A program made the position numbers and the translations under genes. A DNA stretch of 64,000 bases, taken from a bacterium (GTDB taxonomy: Bacteria; Patescibacteriota; Andersenbacteria; UBA10190; CAIZMI01). This document shows positions 6,312-38,562 of this stretch, piece by piece (position 1 is the first letter of the stretch; every line of letters begins with the position of its first letter). The notes beneath the pieces were generated by a model that had not been told where the DNA came from, made no database searches, and worked only from the letters and a program-made list of their open reading frames with translations. The DNA lies in NCBI GenBank assembly GCA_030647555.1, contig JAUSJG010000027.1, positions 15,532 through 79,531 on the forward strand, given 5' to 3'.

Positions 6312-9300
6312 ATGTTAAGAACTTTTAAATCGGTCTTCCCTGGTATCCTGACTGTTGTTTTATTTATGGGTTGGTTTAGTCTTGCCACGCCGAAGCTTTT
6401 TGCGGAGGAGGGGGTTGCTTCATCACAAGAGACCAGTACCACTCCCGAAGTGGACCCGTTGGCCACTTCGGGAGTGGTACTGGGTGAAGCAACTCCCGCT
6501 TCAACACCGACACCCACTTCTGATCCAACACCAACACCAAATTCAACACCGCTACCCACTCCCGATCCCACGCCCGCTGTCACTCCCCCAATTACCCCTG
6601 TTCCTAATCCCAGTCCCACGGCTACACCGGAGGGAACTGATCCCGAGAACGAAAAACCAAATATCACCAAGACGGAAGAAGATACGGATACGGGGAAACT
6701 AGTCACTCTTTCCGCGCCGGACGAGACGGTAAATAATCAAAACGTCGTCACCGGCACCGAGATCCCCGAGATCTACAAAGTCGGTCAAGAAGGAAGAATC
6801 CAAATCAAGTGGAAAAACAACAACGATCAGGCAATGCAATTCAAGGCCGAAGATAAAAACAACAACGGCAAGCTTGATTACGTCGAGTGGACCGTTCCTC
6901 ATCTCTCCACCCAAGTCTTTGAAATCATCTACATCAGCAAAGCCTTCCAATTAGACGAGAACAAAGAAATAATCAGTGACATCTACGATAAGGTAAAGAC
7001 CCAAGATAACAACTGGGCAACAGTAAAAGATGGCCAATCTGTCCGTGTAACCTTCCAACAAGTATTGGATAATACGAAAGATATCACGATTCACGCCAGA
7101 CCAAAACAGAATCCTTTACTTTCTCTTTTTCAAGCCAAACCAAAAATCGAAGTTTATCCTGTTTATTCCACCACCCCTGAGACATCGGGGGTCCAAGCGT
7201 CCGAACCAATCGCCACGTTTCAAAGTATCGACAAAGAAAACACTTATCAAATCCTTCTCAAAGACTTAAAGACCCCTACCGATCAGTTTGATCTAAGAGT
7301 TATCAATGGCGACATTGATTTTGATTACATCGTAGATCCAGTAGGCTGGCTGACAAACTGGACTCACAGAAAGAAGATCACCATTGCCAACACCAATGTG
7401 GATGCGGATTTAACGGATTTTCCGGCACTGGTGAGCATTACTGCTGATGCGGATTTGGCAACCGCACTGGCAACTGGCTACGACATCAGGTTCACGGATT
7501 CCGGCGGAAGCACTTTGCTTTCCTACGAACGAGAATCTTGGTCAGGAGGCGCAGGCGCCAGCGCCACAGGAATCTTCTGGGTCAAAGTGCCAACCATCGA
7601 CGACACCGTGGACACCGACATTTATGTGTACTACGGCAAAAGTGACGCCGTCGACGGCCAATCGGCCGTCAATGTGTGGGATAGCAATTACAAAGGCGTG
7701 TGGCACATGGACGACGGGGCAGACACAAGCCACATTAACGATTCGACTTCCAATGGAAAAACCGGAACAAAGGAGGGGGCAGCAACACCTTCGCAAACAA
7801 CAGGATTGATCGGAAAGGCACAAAGCTTTGCCGCGCAACAAATCTCCACATCGAATATCGGGGTTTCTACGGTCGCTGGCGATAAAACAACGGTAGATTT
7901 TTGGATGAAGTGGGACGGAACGGACGAAGTGATGCCGTTCGGATTCGCGGCCTACGACCTGTATATGCATTTATCCGGCATAGGATTCAATTCCGCGCAA
8001 GGCGATGTATATGGCATCCCGACGACCGGATTCTCCGGGAACTGGAAGCACATAACGGCTGTGTTTTTTAACGGAGCATACACGGGGAATACGAAGATCT
8101 ATGTCAACGGAGTCTCCCAAACACTGACGCAGCTGTTTGGAGGCGCAGGAAGCGCGACCGTCAGCGTCAATCCTATGATCAGTGGCTGGGGATATAATTC
8201 GGGGTATAAATTTTCCGGATTATTGGATGACGTGAGAATATCGAATCTTGAGCGCTCTGCGGAGTGGATTAAGTTTGAATATTATAATCAAAGCTCGGCA
8301 AATGCAGAACTTACTTTTGCAAGCCAAGAAAACAATGTAAGCTGGTTGGCTGGCTGGAGCAATAGAAAGAAAATCACTATTGATCATACTAAAGTTGGTG
8401 GAGGCACTGAAACCCAAACCAACTTCCCGGTTCTTATTTCCCTCACAGGCTTATCCGGCATCAATGCCAATGGCACCGACATCAGATTCACTGCTGATGA
8501 TGGTGGAACATATCTTGCCCGCGAAATTGAAAGTTATTCCGCCGGCGCCCTTACCGCCTGGGTGAAAATTCCAACATTATCCCACACCGCAGACACCGTG
8601 ATTTATATGTACTATGGCAATAGTAGCGCTACCGAGCCCGCCGCCAATTCCACGTATGGAAGCCAAAATGTGTGGGACAGCAGTTTTAAAGGCGTGTGGC
8701 ATTTGAAGGAAGCAACAGGAGTAAACAATGCCGACTCAACCAGCAACGCCAACACAGGAACGCCAACGAATGGTCCAGTGCAAGCCACAGGGAAAGTTGA
8801 TGGCTCATTGAGCTTTGATGGGGGGGATGATTATGTAAATGTAGGAACTATTATTAATGTCGGCAACACGTTTAGCGTCGATGCTTGGTTCAACGCCAAT
8901 GAAGTAAAGACAGCCGGTTTAGTTTCAGTAATTGATTCAGGTGGGGACGGTCACTATGGCATTTGGACGAGAAACGACGGCACTGTTGAACTAATACTAG
9001 ACTGGTCGACTGGATGGACAAGTGTATCAACCACATATAGCACAAACAATTGGATACATATTATTGGCACATTTGATGGTACAACACTTCGTCTTTACAA
9101 AAATGGAATACTAGCGATTTCAAATACACCATCTGGTACTCCGATAAATGCTTCCAACAACTTAGTAATTGGAGCGATAACGGCAGCGAGCTTTCCATTC
9201 AACGGTCTCCTCGATGACACTCGCGTTTCCTCCACCGCTCGCTCCGCAGGTTGGATTGCTACCGAGTATGCCAACCAAAACTCTCCGGGGACTTTTTATG

Positions 9301-32915: not shown

Positions 32916-33111
32916 TGTGTGTGTATATTTTATTTTTGGTAAACGGTATAGGTATTTAGGCTTGTTCATCATAGCTTCGTCTTCGTTTGTATCGATATAT
33001 CGATACAAGGTTTTGGAAATTTTGAATTTCATTAGAAATTAGATATTAGTAATTAGTCATTTTGGGCGTCGATAAAACAGTATTAGCAGAGTTAAACAAG
33101 ATGTTTATATT

Positions 33112-34707
33112 TTAGACCAAACTGCGCAATATACTCATCGCTGTCATTTGCGGGGGTTGTGGAATTTGCATTATTTCCAAGACTGTTGGCCCGATGTCGG
33201 CCAGGCAACCAATTGGGGTGGAGAGCACTTGCATTACCATTTCTTCTTCCTTTGGGGGGTCTTGTTTGTTGTTGGCGGTTATATAAATAACAGGCACAGG
33301 GTTGGCGGTGTGGTCTTTCGAGATTTGGTGTGTGGTTGGATTCAACATCTCCTCGGCATTTCCATGATCGGCGGTGATAAGTACCGCGCCGTCTTTGGCT
33401 ATTGTGACATCAATTATTTTTTTCATTTCCTTATCCAGAAACTGCAATGATTCAACCGTGGCATCGTATTCTCCCGTATGACCAATCATGTCGGGGTTGG
33501 CAAAGTTCATTATGATGAGGTCGTATTTGTCTTTATTGATTTCTTTTACAACATGGTCGGCGATCACCTTCGCGCTCATTTCGGGAGTATCGGAATAATT
33601 TTTAACATTCGGTGAGGGGACCATGACGCGGTCTTCGCCTGGAAAAGATATTTCACGTCCACTGTTAAAATAATATGTGACGTGCGCGTATTTTTCTGTT
33701 TCGGCAATACGGAGCTGTGTTTTTCCGGCATCGGAAACAACACGGCCGGTGGGAAATTCTGCTTGTTCTTCGGGGAAGGCGACTGTAACCGGTAAATCCT
33801 TTTGGTATTCGGACATGGTGACAAATTCCAGGTCCGTCCAGTTTTGCACGGGGAAATCGTTAAAGCCTTTTGTTGTAAAAGCATAAGTCAGTTGGCGAGC
33901 GCGGTCCGGGCGAAAGTTAAAGAAGATAACAGTATCGCCATCTTGGATTTTACGTAACGGTTCGCCGTGTTTGGTAATTACGTAGGCCGTGACAGTTTCG
34001 TCGGTTTCTTTTTTCTCATAAGCGCTTTCGAGCGCATCTTTCCAACTGTCGGTATGTTCGCCAATTCCGTCGGTCAGTAAATCGTATGCGACCTTCGTGC
34101 GGTCCCAATTATTGTTACGGTCCATTGCAAAGTAGCGACCAACGAGAGAAGCGATTCCACCACTTTTTGTGTGATCGATGGCTTCTTGTACTTTTTTCAG
34201 ATACGATCCGGCGCTTATAGCGGGAGTATCACGGCCGTCCAAAAACGCGTGGACAAATGTTCTATTGCTCACTCCTTCTTTTTTTGCGAGTTGTAATATG
34301 GCAAGAAGGTGGTCGACGTGACTGTGTACTCCGCCGTCGCTAACACAACCAATCAGGTGTAACGCGGAATTGGGACGTTCTTTGACGTGATTCGTGGCTG
34401 CTACAAATGCGGGGTTTTTGAAAAAGGATTTATTTTCGATGGACATCGTAATCTGAGGGAGAGGTTGGTAAATGATGCGTCCCGAACCCATGTTTTTGTG
34501 ACCAACCTCGGAATTTCCCGATTCGCCCCACGGTAAACCAACTTCAATCCCTGAAGCTTTTATTACAGCGGATGGATACTCACGTACCCAACGTTCAAAA
34601 TTTTCCATTTTAGCGGCATAAATCGCGTTGCCTTCCTGCAGGAAGGAGATACCAAACCCATCGAGAATCATTAAAACTAACGGTCGAGGAATTTTTATAT
34701 CGGACAT
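33112..34707 (-). CDS. gpmI: 2,3-bisphosphoglycerate-independent phosphoglycerate mutase
   Basis: 531 aa. LVLMILDGFGI N-terminus, metal-binding Asp/His/Ser context, alkaline-phosphatase-like core. Confidence 0.95.
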   Translation of the reverse strand: MSDIKIPRPLVLMILDGFGISFLQEGNAIYAAKMENFERWVREYPSAVIKASGIEVGLPWGESGNSEVGHKNMGSGRIIYQPLPQITMSIENKSFFKNPAFVAATNHVKERPNSALHLIGCVSDGGVHSHVDHLLAILQLAKKEGVSNRTFVHAFLDGRDTPAISAGSYLKKVQEAIDHTKSGGIASLVGRYFAMDRNNNWDRTKVAYDLLTDGIGEHTDSWKDALESAYEKKETDETVTAYVITKHGEPLRKIQDGDTVIFFNFRPDRARQLTYAFTTKGFNDFPVQNWTDLEFVTMSEYQKDLPVTVAFPEEQAEFPTGRVVSDAGKTQLRIAETEKYAHVTYYFNSGREISFPGEDRVMVPSPNVKNYSDTPEMSAKVIADHVVKEINKDKYDLIIMNFANPDMIGHTGEYDATVESLQFLDKEMKKIIDVTIAKDGAVLITADHGNAEEMLNPTTHQISKDHTANPVPVIYITANNKQDPPKEEEMVMQVLSTPIGCLADIGPTVLEIMQIPQPPQMTAMSILRSLV

Positions 34708-34819
34708 GAGTAATAGTATACACTGGGATGGGGGAAGCAGGAATGAAGAGTTTTTACGTTTGACTAACAGTGTCGTTGAGAGTAATCTATTTTCAGCTGA
34801 ATAAGTTCAGCTTTAATGA

Positions 34820-34893
34820 CGCGGGGAAGAGCAGCCCGGTCGCTCGCATGGCTCATAACCATGAGGTCGCAGGTTCGAATCCTGCCCCCGCTA
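34820..34893 (+). tRNA. tRNA(CAU), initiator-like (C1/U72 mismatch, A11:U24)
   Basis: Cloverleaf folded by hand: acceptor cgcgggg/ccccgct, D-stem gagc/gctc, anticodon stem catgg/ccatg with loop ctCATaa, T-arm gcagg-ttcgaat-cctgc, discriminator A. No encoded CCA. Confidence 0.7.
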
Positions 34894-34935
34894 CTATTAC
34901 TAAAAAGACCCCTGTGGGGTCTTTTTAGTAATAGA
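34894..34935. terminator. Perfect hairpin after the tRNA (ctattactaaaaagacccc-tgt-ggggtctttttagtaatag)
   Basis: 19-bp stem read directly. Similar aaaatacccctgtggggtatttt hairpin at 35044-35066. Confidence 0.45.
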
Positions 34936-34940
34936 ATGTG

Positions 34941-35375
34941 TGCAGGATTCGAACGGTTCATATTTTCGTCGCACGAAAACATGAACCGGTGGCCAGAATT
35001 ATGCAATATCAATTGCATAATTCGAGGCCAAATCCTGCCCACAAAATACCCCTGTGGGGTATTTTTATTGTTATGATCGAGTGCAGGATTTGAACGGTAT
35101 CGTTGTTTCGTAAAACAACGATACCGGTGGCCAGAATTATGCAATATCAATTGCATAATTCGAGGCCAAATCCTGCCCCCTGCGTGGCTCGTGTTTTATT
35201 TATAAAATTTCGCAAAGCGAAATGACAATAATGACGAGCGATATCTTCGAACCAATACTATTGGTTCGAAGATATCGCTCGGATTTGAACGCCGGAGCAT
35301 ATTTTGCGAAGCAAAATGCGAGGCGGTGGCCAGAAACTTTCGTGTCAACGAAAGTTTCGAGGCCAAATCCTGCCC
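34941..35375. repeat. Three tandem ~95-100-nt structured elements (34941-35040, 35083-35178, 35281-35375). Conserved scaffold: gcaggatTYgaac-[hairpin1]-ggtggccaga-[hairpin2]-tcgaggccaaatcctgccc. Candidate structured ncRNAs or tRNA-end-derived miniature elements.
   Basis: Scaffold termini pair (gcaggatt/aatcctgc). tggcc/ggcca encloses hairpin 2. Hairpin 1 differs completely in sequence among the three units yet keeps a 13-14-bp stem. Hairpin 2 is aattatgcaat-atca-attgcataatt in units 1-2 but aaactttcg-tgtcaa-cgaaagttt in unit 3 (compensatory changes). The 3' end aatcctgccc equals the 3' T-arm/acceptor of the adjacent tRNA. Confidence 0.6.
35262..35306. repeat. Perfect inverted repeat gagcgatatcttcgaacc-aatactatt-ggttcgaagatatcgctc between structured units 2 and 3
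   Basis: 18-bp stem read directly. Confidence 0.45.
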
Positions 35376-35518
35376 AGCGCGTAAATCAGAAATCGGGAGT
35401 GGAAATCGGAGATGACGTCTTGTCCATTTACAAATGCAAAAAATTTAGTAGTATTACTCTAGTTTGGGAAGTCGGATGGATCCGACCACCGACTATCTGA
35501 TTTCCGATTTCCGCGTTT

Positions 35519-35591
35519 GGCTGGATAGCTCAGCGGTTAGAGCAATGGCATCATAAGCCATGGGTCGCAGGTTCGAATCCTGCTCCAGCTA
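35519..35591 (+). tRNA. tRNA(CAU), elongator-type (Met or Ile2/lysidine)
   Basis: Acceptor ggctgga/tccagct (G1-U72). D-stem gctc/gagc. Anticodon stem atggc/gccat with loop atCATaa. T-arm gcagg-ttcgaat-cctgc identical to the first tRNA. Discriminator A. Confidence 0.75.
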
Positions 35592-35617
35592 CAAATTATT
35601 CGTAGGGTATTTGTACA

Positions 35618-36583
35618 TTGTTCGCAAAACGTACGGATACGGTATATAATAGTAGCATGAGAGCAAAAGTTGTGGAAAAGTCGCGGGCAATTCAATTGCG
35701 TAAAAACGGTTTAAGTGTGAAACAGATTGCTCAAAAATTAAGCGTCAGCAAGGGTAGTGTCAGTCCTTGGGTGAAGCTGGTTGTTGTTCCGAAAGAAAAG
35801 AGAAAAAAGATCCGCGAAAGAATGTTAATGGGCGGAGAGAAGGGGAGAAAGAAAATTTTGCGAGGTTGGGATGAATATCGAATATTGCATCCAAAACCGC
35901 CACCATATGTTAAACCAGTCCGTTTAATTGACACTTTTTTTGACAAGTGGTCGCCCGAAATGGCGTATGTGCTGGGCTATTTTGCAGCGGACGGCTGTAT
36001 GTTTCGAAACAAGCGTGGGTCTTATTATATCGAATTTACCTCCACAGACATTGAGTTGATTGCATGTGTAAAAAGTATTTTGGAATCAACAAACAAACTT
36101 GAACGATACAAGCTTAAAAACCCAAAATATAAAATCAGGTATAATATTCAGCTTGGGAGTAAAAGTGCTTTCTTGTCGCTTAATAAACTTGGTTTAACAC
36201 CAAATAAGAGTTTAATAATCAAGTTTCCAGCTGTGCCTGATGAGTATTTGGGGCATTTTTTGCGTGGTAACCTTGATGGCGACGGCTGTGTTACTTTCAC
36301 AAATTATTTTCGAAAAGACAGGGGAAAAAGATATTTGAGTTTAATGATCCGTTTCACCAGTGGAAGTAGAGTGTTTTTAGTCGGGATGAAAAATAGGATT
36401 GAACAAAAAATACCGAATATCGGTGGAAGTTTGATATTATACACTCCAAGGCACCATGTTTTGGCGTATTGCACGTCAAGTGCTAGACAACTGTATAAGA
36501 TAATGTATCCTAATAAATTAGTGCCCTGTCTAAAGCGTAAACGTGACATTTTTCTTAGGGCATTTGAGATTTTGGACCCGTAG
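35618..36583 (+). CDS. Free-standing double-motif LAGLIDADG homing endonuclease with N-terminal helix-turn-helix domain
   Basis: 321 aa. Motif 1 MAYVLGYFAADGCMF and motif 2 LGHFLRGNLDGDGCV (LAGLIDADG consensus). N-terminal LSVKQIAQKLSVSKGSVSPW HTH-like. Last two codons plus stop overlap the 5' acceptor of tRNA-Asp. Confidence 0.85.
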   Translation: MFAKRTDTVYNSSMRAKVVEKSRAIQLRKNGLSVKQIAQKLSVSKGSVSPWVKLVVVPKEKRKKIRERMLMGGEKGRKKILRGWDEYRILHPKPPPYVKPVRLIDTFFDKWSPEMAYVLGYFAADGCMFRNKRGSYYIEFTSTDIELIACVKSILESTNKLERYKLKNPKYKIRYNIQLGSKSAFLSLNKLGLTPNKSLIIKFPAVPDEYLGHFLRGNLDGDGCVTFTNYFRKDRGKRYLSLMIRFTSGSRVFLVGMKNRIEQKIPNIGGSLILYTPRHHVLAYCTSSARQLYKIMYPNKLVPCLKRKRDIFLRAFEILDP

Positions 36584-36648
36584 TTTAATCGGTAAAACAC
36601 CTGCTTGTCACGCAGGAGACAGCGAGTTCGATCCTCGTCGGGTCCGCC
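36574..36648 (+). tRNA. tRNA-Asp(GUC) with encoded CCA
   Basis: Acceptor ggacccg/cgggtcc. D-stem gttt/aaac. Anticodon stem cctgc/gcagg with loop ttGTCac. T-arm gcgag-ttcgatc-ctcgt. Discriminator G then CCA. Confidence 0.8.
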
Positions 36649-36677
36649 AAAAAATACGCCTTTCGGCGTATTTTTCG
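36649..36677. terminator. Bidirectional rho-independent terminator (aaaaaatacgcc-tttc-ggcgtattttt) serving tRNA-Asp and the convergent dsbA-like gene
   Basis: Symmetric hairpin flanked by A-run and T-run. Confidence 0.6.
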
Positions 36678-36694
36678 ATGTTCTACGAAATCTG

Positions 36695-37384
36695 TTACTT
36701 AACCGAATTGACCACTTTTGCCAACTGGTCGGCACCAACAGCGCCCCTTATCGGTGTTGCACCTTTTGGTCCGATAATAATCGAAGTTGGCGTGCCGGTG
36801 ATTTTTGCAACGCGGGCGGCGTCAAGATAGATTTGGGTTTTCGATCCGTATTTGTCCGAGCTTAAACATTGAGAGAACACTGTTCCGTCTAAACCTAAAT
36901 CTGTGCCGATTTTTGCTAAACGGGCCGGATCGATAATGTTTTCCGTGTCGGTGGAAGTATAAATTGCGTCAAGATATTCCCAGTATTTTCCTTGGTCATT
37001 TGCGCAATCCATCGCTTTTTCTTCCACTTGTCCTGTGGGCTTAAACGGAGTTGGACGATAAACAAGACGGACATCCGGGTTTTCGGATAGAACCTTTTTT
37101 AACTCCGGGTAGAAAACACGGCAATATGGACATTGAGTATCCGAATAGAGAACAATTGTTGTGGTCGCTGTCGCAGAACCTTTAATGTAGTCTTGGGCTG
37201 ATACAGCGGGAATAGAGGCTGGATCGAATGGTGGTTCTGTTGGCGCGCTACCGGCTTGTTGAACAGCTGGCTTTGTTGCTGGTGGCACTTTTGCTTTAGT
37301 AAGCAAAAAACCCACGACAACCACAATAACAACTAAAACGATGATTGCCGGTAATGTTGATTTGTTTGATATGTTTTCTTCCAT
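36695..37384 (-). CDS. dsbA: DsbA-family thioredoxin-fold thiol:disulfide oxidoreductase, membrane-anchored
   Basis: 229 aa. N-terminal TM helix. CPYC active-site motif (DTQCPYCRVF). Confidence 0.8.
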   Translation of the reverse strand: MEENISNKSTLPAIIVLVVIVVVVGFLLTKAKVPPATKPAVQQAGSAPTEPPFDPASIPAVSAQDYIKGSATATTTIVLYSDTQCPYCRVFYPELKKVLSENPDVRLVYRPTPFKPTGQVEEKAMDCANDQGKYWEYLDAIYTSTDTENIIDPARLAKIGTDLGLDGTVFSQCLSSDKYGSKTQIYLDAARVAKITGTPTSIIIGPKGATPIRGAVGADQLAKVVNSVK

Positions 37385-37455
37385 AATGATTGATTGAAGT
37401 GTTAGATCTATATGATGAGCATATAGAAAGGATGGAGGAGAAGCAAGCGCAAATT

Positions 37456-37600
37456 TTCAATTATCAATTTTGCAATTTTCAAATAATTTTCAATGATTTA
37501 ATTATTTGATAGCGTCACCATCTTTGAGAATTAGAAGAATTGATAATTATTTGAAAATTGGTCATTGAAAATTGAAAATTTTGTATAATTATTCATATAA
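37456..37600. promoter_or_regulatory. AT-rich divergent promoter region sharing conserved blocks with the htpX upstream region (5318-5450)
   Basis: ttcaattatcaatt...ttttcaa and aaaattggtcattgaaaattgaaaatttt present in both. Confidence 0.45.
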
Positions 37601-37657
37601 ATTCTATATTGGAGATTATGGCTTTTATTTACTGGGATTTTTCTCTATAATGTTCCC

Positions 37658-38167
37658 ATGGGCTTACATGAACAACGAATCGAAAACTTAACACGGGAGA
37701 TATTACTCGTTTTAGACGAGCTGGTGTCGAAAGGCGCGGGCATTCCACGGCCGATTATCGGTCTAAGTAAAGAAATGCCTTTTTTCTTGCCGGTGCAACA
37801 GCGTTGCGTGGCGAAATTAAGGAAGATAGCGCAAGACAATAAGGCGGAATTTCATCCGGCAGTCATTATGATGACGGTGCATCCATATCAGGATCCATCA
37901 AGCAAACGTGTTGCTCAAGTAGCTTTTCCGTATAACGAATTGGTTACGGGTGACGTTATTGATCGTTTGGATGATGAGTCAGAGGTTAAGCTGGCAAAAA
38001 TTGTTATGAAAGACGTGCCGAAGGATTGGGAAAGCGAGCGCGTACTCGATTTACGTATGCAGGCAATCAGTAAGCACGTTCGTTATGGGGAAGTAATGGC
38101 AACAGCAAAAAATGTAAACTTACGCGTTCCGCGAGTAGCGATTCCAGGCAAAGAGTCCGGGGTTTAG
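37658..38167 (+). CDS. Hypothetical protein
   Basis: 169-aa ORF, good coding appearance, no recognisable motif. Confidence 0.4.
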   Translation: MGLHEQRIENLTREILLVLDELVSKGAGIPRPIIGLSKEMPFFLPVQQRCVAKLRKIAQDNKAEFHPAVIMMTVHPYQDPSSKRVAQVAFPYNELVTGDVIDRLDDESEVKLAKIVMKDVPKDWESERVLDLRMQAISKHVRYGEVMATAKNVNLRVPRVAIPGKESGV

Positions 38168-38178
38168 AAGCTATTTGA

Positions 38179-38562
38179 ATGACACTACGCAGTTCACTGG
38201 TAATATTTGGAATTTGGACGGCGTTAGCGCTGGCAACGCTTGTTTTTGTGATTACGTCGGTAGCGCCGGGGGCTAATGGGCTTTATGCGGAAGCCTTTTT
38301 CTTTGGGGCGCTCTTTTTGGCGACAACTGGTGCTATAACAATATTGGGTGTATTTGGTCGTTTGCGTAATTCAACAGAACTTCCGGCAAATCAGCTGGCC
38401 CCCGCATTTAGGCAGGGGATATTGATTGCTATTGCACTTGTGACCGTATTGCTTTTGCAGAGATTTAGAATTTTGCAATGGTGGAACATCCTTTTGCTGG
38501 GAATAATTCTGGTTTTGATCGATTTGGTGTTCGCGAGCACAAAGAGGAGGTCTAAGGTTTAG
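38179..38562 (+). CDS. Hypothetical small membrane protein (four predicted TM helices)
   Basis: 127 aa, hydrophobic segments throughout. Confidence 0.45.
   Translation: MTLRSSLVIFGIWTALALATLVFVITSVAPGANGLYAEAFFFGALFLATTGAITILGVFGRLRNSTELPANQLAPAFRQGILIAIALVTVLLLQRFRILQWWNILLLGIILVLIDLVFASTKRRSKV

Follow-up and report, generated by a model that had tools for sequence, protein, structure and literature searches.

Why should a homing endonuclease gene (HEG) lie outside any intron or intein, between two tRNA genes of a bacterial chromosome? The question is raised by a 64,000-nucleotide (nt) stretch of DNA, hereafter the window, from a Patescibacteria genome (assembly GCA_030647555.1, contig JAUSJG010000027.1, positions 15,532 to 79,531 of the forward strand; coordinates below are those of the window). 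In it, an open reading frame (ORF) with two LAGLIDADG motifs occupies 35657..36583 of the plus strand and runs into the gene for tRNA-Asp(GUC). To our knowledge, nearly all free-standing homing endonucleases described so far come from phages and organelles. Analysis of the ORF, of its relatives and of their loci suggested that it is quite probably an active, free-standing LAGLIDADG HEG cassette, specific for the tRNA-Asp(GUC) locus and moving together with the 5' part of this tRNA, and that the cassettes of its relatives probably mobilise tRNA-Asp introns in trans. Free-standing HEGs, the presence of one of them (SegB) in a tRNA cluster, and collaborative homing are already known; what is new is that the genes are strictly linked to a single chromosomal tRNA throughout a phylum, that ORF and tRNA overlap, and that there is a link to introns thought to lack an endonuclease. 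A family with such strict linkage to one chromosomal tRNA is apparently undescribed in the literature that we searched.

Predicted fold and active site of the endonuclease

The gene encodes 308 amino acids (aa) when read from the ATG at 35657, which is the likely start codon, as the homologues align from that Met; the in-frame TTG at 35618 is the mechanical start of the ORF. In the ATG form, the protein is 100% identical to the deposited protein P0001, annotated as 'LAGLIDADG family homing endonuclease'. Pfam analysis of the ORF identified LAGLIDADG_3 (4e-10, 40.2 bits against a cut-off of 22.5) and the helix-turn-helix (HTH) family HTH_23 (3e-6, residues 16-53 of the TTG form), together with a weak match to LAGLIDADG_WhiA under the cut-off (0.004). 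The N-terminal HTH domain spans residues ~1-55 (35657..35821, plus strand; Pfam HTH_23 and structure model) and runs into a long linker helix (residues 46-77). The two LAGLIDADG motifs were read from the sequence, each closed by a catalytic acidic residue: motif 1, MAYVLGYFAADG, at 35960..35995 (plus strand) with D112, and motif 2, FLRGNLDGDG, at 36257..36286 (plus strand) with D209.

The AlphaFold2 (AF2) model of the window protein, built from 37 homologues, is confident, with a predicted local distance difference test score (pLDDT) of 93.9. It consists of an N-terminal three-helix bundle (helices 2-16, 21-28, and 32-39), the long linker helix, and two helix-plus-four-strand units, which form the pseudo-dimeric alpha-beta-beta-alpha-beta-beta-alpha fold of LAGLIDADG enzymes. 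Foldseek comparison with the PDB gave I-Tsp061I (2dch) as the best match, followed by E-DreI, the bI3 maturase, I-AniI, I-SmaMI, I-OnuI, and I-DmoI. All top matches are LAGLIDADG enzymes, intron-type ones such as I-DmoI and I-AniI among them, and the Foldseek probability is 1.00 for I-Tsp061I, E-DreI, I-AniI, I-DmoI, and I-OnuI. The sequence identity to solved LAGLIDADG structures is just 13-19%. A profile search recovered I-MsoI (2e-5) and I-Tsp061I (3e-5), while the search of the PDB with the single protein returned weak HTH matches only and no LAGLIDADG structure, so that profile and fold searches were needed. The archaeal or organellar intron-encoded enzymes I-Tsp061I, I-DmoI, and I-AniI and the LAGLIDADG enzymes in Patescibacteria rRNA introns share with the window protein the fold, the two LAGLIDADG helices, and the catalytic Asp; unlike them, the window gene lies outside an intron and has gained an N-terminal HTH.

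LAGLIDADG homing endonucleases cleave double-stranded DNA site-specifically at a long target, leaving 4-nt 3' overhangs. In the alignment of 81 family members, D112 and G113, D207, G208, and D209, and the active-site residue K184 are invariant (81/81), and G210 and the active-site residue Q165 are each retained in 80/81. The ratio of nonsynonymous to synonymous substitution rates (dN/dS) is 0.07-0.23 for pairs with dS not fully saturated. The complete ORFs of the assessable family copies are all intact; 'internal stops', considered as a sign of pseudogenes, turned out to be artefacts of where the tblastn matches start. By every sequence criterion, the window protein is predicted to be a working nuclease.

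At 33000-38500, no Rfam intron model matched at E<=1, the only matches being three tRNAs, and the window protein contains no Hint or intein domain of Pfam or NCBIfam. A preliminary description, made from the letters of the window and a list of its ORFs, had proposed a monomeric enzyme with double LAGLIDADG motifs and an N-terminal HTH, encoded outside any intron or intein; Pfam, AF2, Foldseek, and the reading of the motifs bear out the first part and the Rfam and Hint searches the second. The ORF is thus best described as encoding a predicted free-standing, single-chain, two-motif LAGLIDADG endonuclease with an N-terminal HTH.

Overlap with tRNA-Asp and linkage across the family

The tRNA genes of the window were called with ARAGORN and Rfam, which agree. 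The intronless tRNA-Asp(GUC) gene, the constant downstream partner of the gene family, is located at 36574..36649 (plus strand; ARAGORN; Rfam tRNA, 68.4 bits), with its CCA encoded. The left neighbour of the cassette is a tRNA(CAU) of the elongator Met or Ile2 type at 35519..35592 (plus strand; ARAGORN, Rfam), and the ORF does sit between two intact tRNA genes, as had been described. Reading of the junction revealed that the ORF and tRNA-Asp overlap by 10 nt (36574..36583, plus strand), which are tRNA-Asp positions 1-10: a Leu codon has its third base at G1 of the tRNA, the codons GAC CCG form positions 2-7, and the stop codon TAG is U8-A9-G10. The preliminary description was right about the overlap but not about its extent, having equated GAC CCG TAG with the first 7 nt of the tRNA.

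The family was scanned with one genome per species, giving at least 496 relatives, of which 80 loci were kept. These loci (numbered with the prefix L) were selected by patterns in the two LAGLIDADG motifs, a selection blind to the downstream sequence. Most relatives are metagenome-assembled genomes (MAGs) of Patescibacteria, and a few are labelled Omnitrophota. A tRNA-Asp(GUC) gene was found at the end of the gene in 76/77 loci not cut by a contig end and in 3/3 further homologues, in total 79/80, with L044 as the only exception among the 80 assessable loci. The start of tRNA-Asp falls within a range from 86 nt upstream to 72 nt downstream of the stop codon, mostly at -24 to +20 (76/77 loci). 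This linkage holds whatever the upstream neighbour, which may be tRNA-Met (in many cases 3-26 nt away from the start codon), tRNA-Val, a divergent PolX or LemA gene, or nothing recognisable.

Comparison of the homologues revealed that their C-termini ..DP, ..GPVV, and ..GRSSVG represent three frames through the tRNA-Asp 5' end (xxG GAC CCG TAG; GGA CCC GTA GTT TAA; and ACC CGT AGC TCA GTT GGT TAG). The '-10' junction seen in the window occurs in at least 22/80 family loci, and the '-15' junctions (G-x-V-V/A-stop) and '-23/-24' junctions (..SSVG-stop) use the other two reading frames. A C-terminal peptide that is a translated tRNA-Asp 5' end was present in 123/241 family proteins versus 6/111 control proteins. 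This recurrence, together with that of the junction in 79/80 loci, indicates that the overlap is not a product of chance. The distance from the conserved K295 codon to position +1 of the tRNA is mostly 26-53 nt, which places the end of the last protein helix at the tRNA or immediately ahead of it.

An exhaustive search at E<=1e-10 yielded 2,961 cluster representatives, so that the family comprises about 3,000 clusters at 50% identity. The N-terminal HTH is absent from most relatives, and on the tree, forms of 205-235 aa without an HTH are intermixed with longer forms that have an N-terminal HTH of one of two types. In L040, L057, L070, L073, L076, and L077, the family member lies between tRNA-Val(UAC) and tRNA-Asp in MAGs labelled Omnitrophota or 'Planctomycetia', which suggests a spread beyond Patescibacteria. 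Two contigs of one MAG (Daviesbacteria E14_metabat.bin.192; L004 and L028) each carry a family member beside an intron-bearing tRNA-Asp, with endonucleases of different clades; either the genome has two copies or the bin is mixed. Some database 'proteins' (P0011, P0043, P0045, L069, and L077) read through the whole tRNA, with ..AGSNPVGSA as the translated T-arm, or start inside the upstream tRNA, because the tRNA overlap misleads gene calling.

Presence, absence, and exchange with tRNA sequence

The orthologous loci share the synteny of the window, which comprises pheST, two small genes, a DsbA-like gene, the tRNA island, gpmI, and murL. The gene is present in the window and in L081-85, whose DsbA is 78% identical to that of the window, and absent at the same synteny in L086/87, L088-90, and L091/92, in which tblastn detected no remnant. 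A closer pair of filled and empty sites was found elsewhere in the family: L101 and L102 carry a 232-aa family member and L103 does not, with PolX 94% identical and the DNA flanks 96-99% identical between them; L102 and L103 come from the same metagenome, Ga0209542. Presence and absence are therefore polymorphic at one fixed site, and this comparison of orthologous loci supports a mobile element. The preliminary description had held that presence in all related genomes, under strong purifying selection, would speak for a domesticated gene; the strong purifying selection is there, but universal presence is not.

Alignment of L101 and L103 indicated that their identity breaks at the PolX start codon and returns in the T-loop of tRNA-Asp. 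In L101, the intervening block contains the 699-nt gene, preceded by a 30-nt leader and followed by a tRNA-Asp; in its D-arm, anticodon arm, and variable loop, this tRNA shows no relation to that of L103. The anticodon loop is TTGTCAA in L101 and CTGTCAC in L103, and the acceptor stem is the same in both. From these breakpoints, the gene was exchanged together with about 55 nt of tRNA-Asp, which would be the co-conversion expected of homing.

The window itself was compared with L081, its sister by flanking proteins (DsbA 0.78, gpmI 0.86, and the 169-aa neighbour 0.94). Between the two, tRNA-fMet is 100% identical, tRNA-Met 77%, tRNA-Asp 73%, and the endonuclease 61%, and the tRNA-Asp and tRNA-Met copies of L081 match those of HEG-less relatives at 95-100%. 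The DNA identity drops in the 3' half of the gene, and the protein identity is 0.75 in the HTH, 0.82 in the linker, 0.59 in the first nuclease domain, and 0.48 in the second. The tRNA-proximal part of the cassette in the window thus appears either to have been replaced or to be evolving very fast. Since the nuclease C-terminus, tRNA-Asp, and tRNA-Met are far more diverged than the neighbouring genes, the window cassette looks recombinant, a second sign of co-conversion of flanking markers beside the exchanged block of L101/L103. L081-L085 represent one strain, identical apart from a 144-nt repeat indel, and are uninformative for the cassette boundaries.

The orientation of tRNA-Asp relative to conserved neighbours varies among relatives (L086, 5922-6173; L108, L110, L112, L114, L116, and L118). 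The inverted tRNA-Asp of L086 stands beside tRNA-Met, tRNA-Asp is paired with tRNA-Gly in the PolX group, and L111 has a truncated tRNA-Asp only. Rearrangements concentrate at the tRNA-Asp locus also where the endonuclease gene is lacking.

Group I introns in the adjacent tRNA-Asp

ARAGORN missed tRNA-Asp in 21/76 loci, in which the gene is interrupted after ..CUGU, at anticodon positions 35/36. With two of the three extra loci, an intron was found in 23/79 loci; the tRNA-Asp of the window is intronless. The insertions are 196-243 nt long, ORF-less, and situated 35 nt into the tRNA, on the downstream side of the endonuclease ORF. All 23 are homologous (60-85% pairwise identity, with conserved cores), the 5' exon ending in U and the insertion in G. 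Rfam Intron_gpI reached the gathering score in L003, L004, L041, and L098, and E<=1e-5 in L033 and L034. Additional group I intron matches above the Rfam gathering score lie outside tRNA-Asp, in L022 (3382-3594, minus strand), L008 (2658-2867, plus strand), and L055 (6173-6383, plus strand). A 912-nt 'intron' in L068 was spurious, because the tRNA-Asp of this locus is intact according to ARAGORN.

Nakagawa et al. 2026 (PMC13011429) described group I introns at 35/36 of Patescibacteria tRNA-Asp and tRNA-Asn, which self-splice in vitro; the 23 insertions share with the published tRNA-Asp introns the position, the size, and the boundary rules (U before, G at the end). That study sought HEGs inside the introns only, and concluded that most introns lack them and that horizontal transfer appears limited; neither it nor the other papers returned by our literature searches mention an adjacent free-standing HEG. 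The published tRNA-Asp introns occur in 3/95 complete Patescibacteria genomes, GCA_001029755.1, GCA_023898525.1, and GCA_030583725.1 (PMC13011429), against which the 21/76 of the HEG loci corresponds to an odds ratio of 11.7 (p=4e-6), a base rate drawn from a different sampling frame and set against loci that are not phylogenetically independent. Within the PolX synteny group, in which PolX is divergent from tRNA-Asp, the intron was found in 5/8 loci with the HEG versus 0/11 distinct loci without it (p=0.005). L104 (no HEG, no intron) and the syntenic L009 (HEG and intron) have the same tRNA-Asp sequence once the intron of L009 is spliced out. An ORF-less intron next to an HEG, and co-occurrence of the two, are thus features of the family but not of the window.

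Four intron-bearing loci have, at the end of the ORF, a relic of the tRNA-Asp 5' end that measures 9 to about 25 nt, then a 24-72 nt spacer and the complete intron-containing tRNA-Asp (L008, 4856-4925; L009, 4661-4697; L034, 4730-4753; L039, 4679-4750). The relics resemble scars, left either by imprecise repair or by the replacement of an older tRNA copy.

The tRNA island and expression signals

Upstream of the cassette, the window contains a second tRNA-CAU gene, of initiator type (tRNA-fMet; 34820..34894, plus strand; ARAGORN, Rfam), with a C1:A72 mismatch. The preliminary description had regarded the two tRNA(CAU) genes as duplicates and as consistent with remodelling, a reading that we rejected, because the gene at 34820 is an initiator and that at 35519 is of elongator type, and because the pair is conserved upstream of tRNA-Asp in many relatives. 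Remodelling of the locus is instead supported by the diverged tRNA-Met and tRNA-Asp next to a tRNA-fMet identical to that of L081.

Between tRNA-fMet and tRNA-Met lie three copies of a structured unit of ~106 nt (34938-35045, 35079-35184, and 35276-35381, plus strand). Its closing stem is formed by an inverted and a direct copy of a tRNA T-arm/3' end (GCAGGAUU / AAUCCUGC) and encloses two long hairpins, the sequences of which vary among the copies while the pairing is kept. RNAfold z-scores of the copies are -10.7, -9.7, and -3.8, the opposite strand folds equally well, and no Rfam family matched the unit. Similar units occur in tRNA islands of relatives (L086, L088), and one of these terminates in a duplicate of the tRNA-Asp 3' end. 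The otherwise identical strains L081 (about 7200-7260) and L082 differ by a 144-nt indel in the zone of structured repeats that separates the tRNA-CAU genes, which indicates that the repeat copy number is unstable.

A consensus scan listed a promoter-like TTCGCA-18-TATAAT (35621..35650, plus strand; 10/12 matches) ending 6 nt before the ATG; overall, the promoter scan showed no enrichment over shuffles. A TATAAT-like hexamer ending exactly 6 nt before the ATG occurs in 10/76 family loci, which makes this the modal offset, and in other family loci the ATG lies 3-19 nt after the upstream tRNA. The offset and the closeness of the ATG to the tRNA suggest a leaderless mRNA. Directly after tRNA-Asp, a hairpin and T-run (AAAATACGCC-TTTC-GGCGTATTTT; 36651..36676, plus strand) was read from the sequence, although the consensus scan did not list it; it is the only clear one and the likely terminator of a HEG-tRNA-Asp transcript. 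The HEG is probably expressed from a leaderless transcript that continues into tRNA-Asp. Such read-through would make tRNA-Asp depend on HEG transcription, and RNase P processing of tRNA-Asp would strip the stop codon from the HEG mRNA.

Discussion

The observations described above can be combined into a homing model. The family has its fixed home site immediately 5' of the tRNA-Asp(GUC) gene, and the moving unit would comprise the HEG and about two thirds of the neighbouring tRNA-Asp, counted from its 5' end; because the unit includes part of the tRNA, the reading frame enters the tRNA and uses its conserved UAG/UAA triplets as stop. We infer that the enzyme would cut HEG-less tRNA-Asp loci of related cells, in the tRNA-Asp gene or at its 5' junction, and that repair of the break from the HEG-bearing copy would copy the HEG in and co-convert the flanking tRNA sequence. 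A resident locus could be immune in one of three ways: the insertion may disrupt the site, the tRNA-Asp allele may have diverged, or, in about 29% of relatives, the group I intron at 35/36 may split the site. The ORF-less introns would then move in trans, by 'collaborative homing'.

Several observations weigh against this model or limit it. The L101/L103 exchange may have been either a gain or a replacement. Every assessable copy is intact and under strong purifying selection, with none decayed, which is unusual for a purely selfish HEG, although the homologue search favours intact copies. The endonuclease tree coarsely follows host taxonomy, and the distribution could largely reflect vertical descent with loss. 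Most HEG-linked tRNA-Asp genes (~71% of loci) are intronless, and the base rate behind the intron enrichment carries the sampling caveat given with it. The anticodon arms of the HEG-linked intronless tRNA-Asp genes do not differ systematically from those of HEG-less alleles or spliced exons; a target in the anticodon loop, with escape changes in intronless HEG alleles, was not supported, as a column-wise comparison of the three allele classes gave no discriminating pattern. Finally, the tRNA-Asp of L081, where the HEG is present, differs from that of HEG-less relatives by 3 nt only.

This last near-identity favours a site that spans the 5' junction and is disrupted by the insertion. On the other side, the L101/L103 tract, the relic tRNA copies (positions 1 to ~9-26), and the intron position are compatible with a break inside the tRNA. 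With the tract reaching position ~55, a target inside the tRNA appears equally possible as one confined to the 5' junction.

The distribution could also be explained by an ancient, immobile resident: a single early patescibacterial insertion before tRNA-Asp, inherited vertically with many losses, the intron link and the mosaic tRNAs being ordinary recombination at a tRNA hot spot. The coarse congruence between the endonuclease tree and host taxa, between-clade identities of only 35-50%, and a locus that is prone to rearrangement anyway (tRNA-Asp inverted in L086, L108, L110, and L112; repeat number varying in otherwise identical strains) are all in keeping with it. We nevertheless consider it unlikely, as a relic would not keep an intact active site at dN/dS near 0.1 in 81/81 copies, the upstream neighbours vary and include tRNA-Val in MAGs labelled Omnitrophota, and the flanks of L101 and L103, 96-99% identical around an unrelated block that ends inside the tRNA, point to a recent exchange.

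Less likely still is a domesticated, immobile LAGLIDADG protein with a host function tied to tRNA-Asp, either as an intron maturase or chaperone or as a DNA-binding regulator of the tRNA operon. Its intact copies under strong purifying selection, the position fixed across the whole phylum, the bI3 maturase and the bifunctional I-AniI among its fold neighbours, the extra HTH domain, and the association with introns would suit such a role. WhiA, a bacterial transcription factor, likewise combines a LAGLIDADG scaffold with an HTH, but its HTH is C-terminal and its catalytic residues are lost. In the present family, an HTH is optional and, where present, N-terminal, and the active site does not vary; these differences, together with the absence of the gene from close relatives, led us to reject a WhiA-like regulator. 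Against a domesticated protein of any kind stand the two catalytic Asp residues and the active-site Gln and Lys, which are invariant or nearly so, the close syntenic relatives that do well without the gene, and the exchange of the gene along with a foreign tRNA segment. A maturase would find no intron to mature in about 71% of loci including the window, and the introns splice protein-free in vitro (PMC13011429).

It is highly improbable that the endonuclease is of the usual kind, encoded by an intron or derived from an intein, and that its host element decayed or escaped notice. Pfam LAGLIDADG_3 relatives are typically intron- or intein-borne and some database names say 'intein', but around this ORF no Rfam intron match at E<=1 and no Hint domain was found, the protein starts with an HTH and ends in a tRNA, the ORF is flanked by two complete tRNA genes and not contained in one, and the introns of its relatives are ORF-less and downstream of it.

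The homing model is in line with systems known from phages. The free-standing GIY-YIG homing endonuclease SegB of phage T4, for which cleavage has been demonstrated, is likewise lodged among tRNA genes, in the T4 tRNA gene cluster (PMC2330249). Its recognition site lies in conserved tRNA sequence and its homing carries flanking tRNA markers, which parallels the ~55 nt of tRNA-Asp exchanged with the gene here. In contrast to SegB, the present family consists of LAGLIDADG proteins, resides in bacterial chromosomes, overlaps a tRNA, is tied to one tRNA species, and is associated with an intron, and its cleavage activity is predicted rather than demonstrated. Collaborative homing has been proposed for F-CphI beside the intron-bearing psbA of cyanophage S-PM2 and shown for T4 mobE with the I-TevIII intron (PMC6083498, PMC2790892). 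As in these systems, a free-standing HEG lies beside a gene with an ORF-less group I intron, and the intron occurs (almost) only where the HEG is; homing of this type would explain the movement of HEG-less introns. Unlike in these systems, the host gene is a tRNA in a cellular genome, the enzyme is of the LAGLIDADG type, and the intron is optional, most HEG loci including the window being intronless.

A more far-reaching version of the homing model can be put forward tentatively. In it, the cassettes would be the missing mobility engine of the ORF-less 35/36 tRNA-Asp introns, the target would be the tRNA gene body, and immunity would be provided by the allele or the intron. An essential tRNA transcribed through the HEG would leave the host unable to silence it, and the non-stop mRNA arising after RNase P would keep the nuclease very low. 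The Bonocora-Shub stages that precede entry of an HEG into an intron (empty, HEG alone, HEG plus intron) would coexist at one locus.

These results have several implications. The overlap with tRNA-Asp explains the odd C-termini and the read-through 'proteins' in MAG annotations, and the family is a source of natural meganucleases whose targets can be sought in a known neighbourhood. They also bear on the conclusion that tRNA-Asp introns lack HEGs and are transferred to a limited extent (PMC13011429), as the endonuclease gene may sit next door. The compact arrangement of gene and tRNA suggests that expression of a selfish gene is coupled to the processing of an essential tRNA, and the locus, with its empty sites, sites with the HEG alone, and sites with HEG and intron, represents a natural series for the origin of mobile group I introns.

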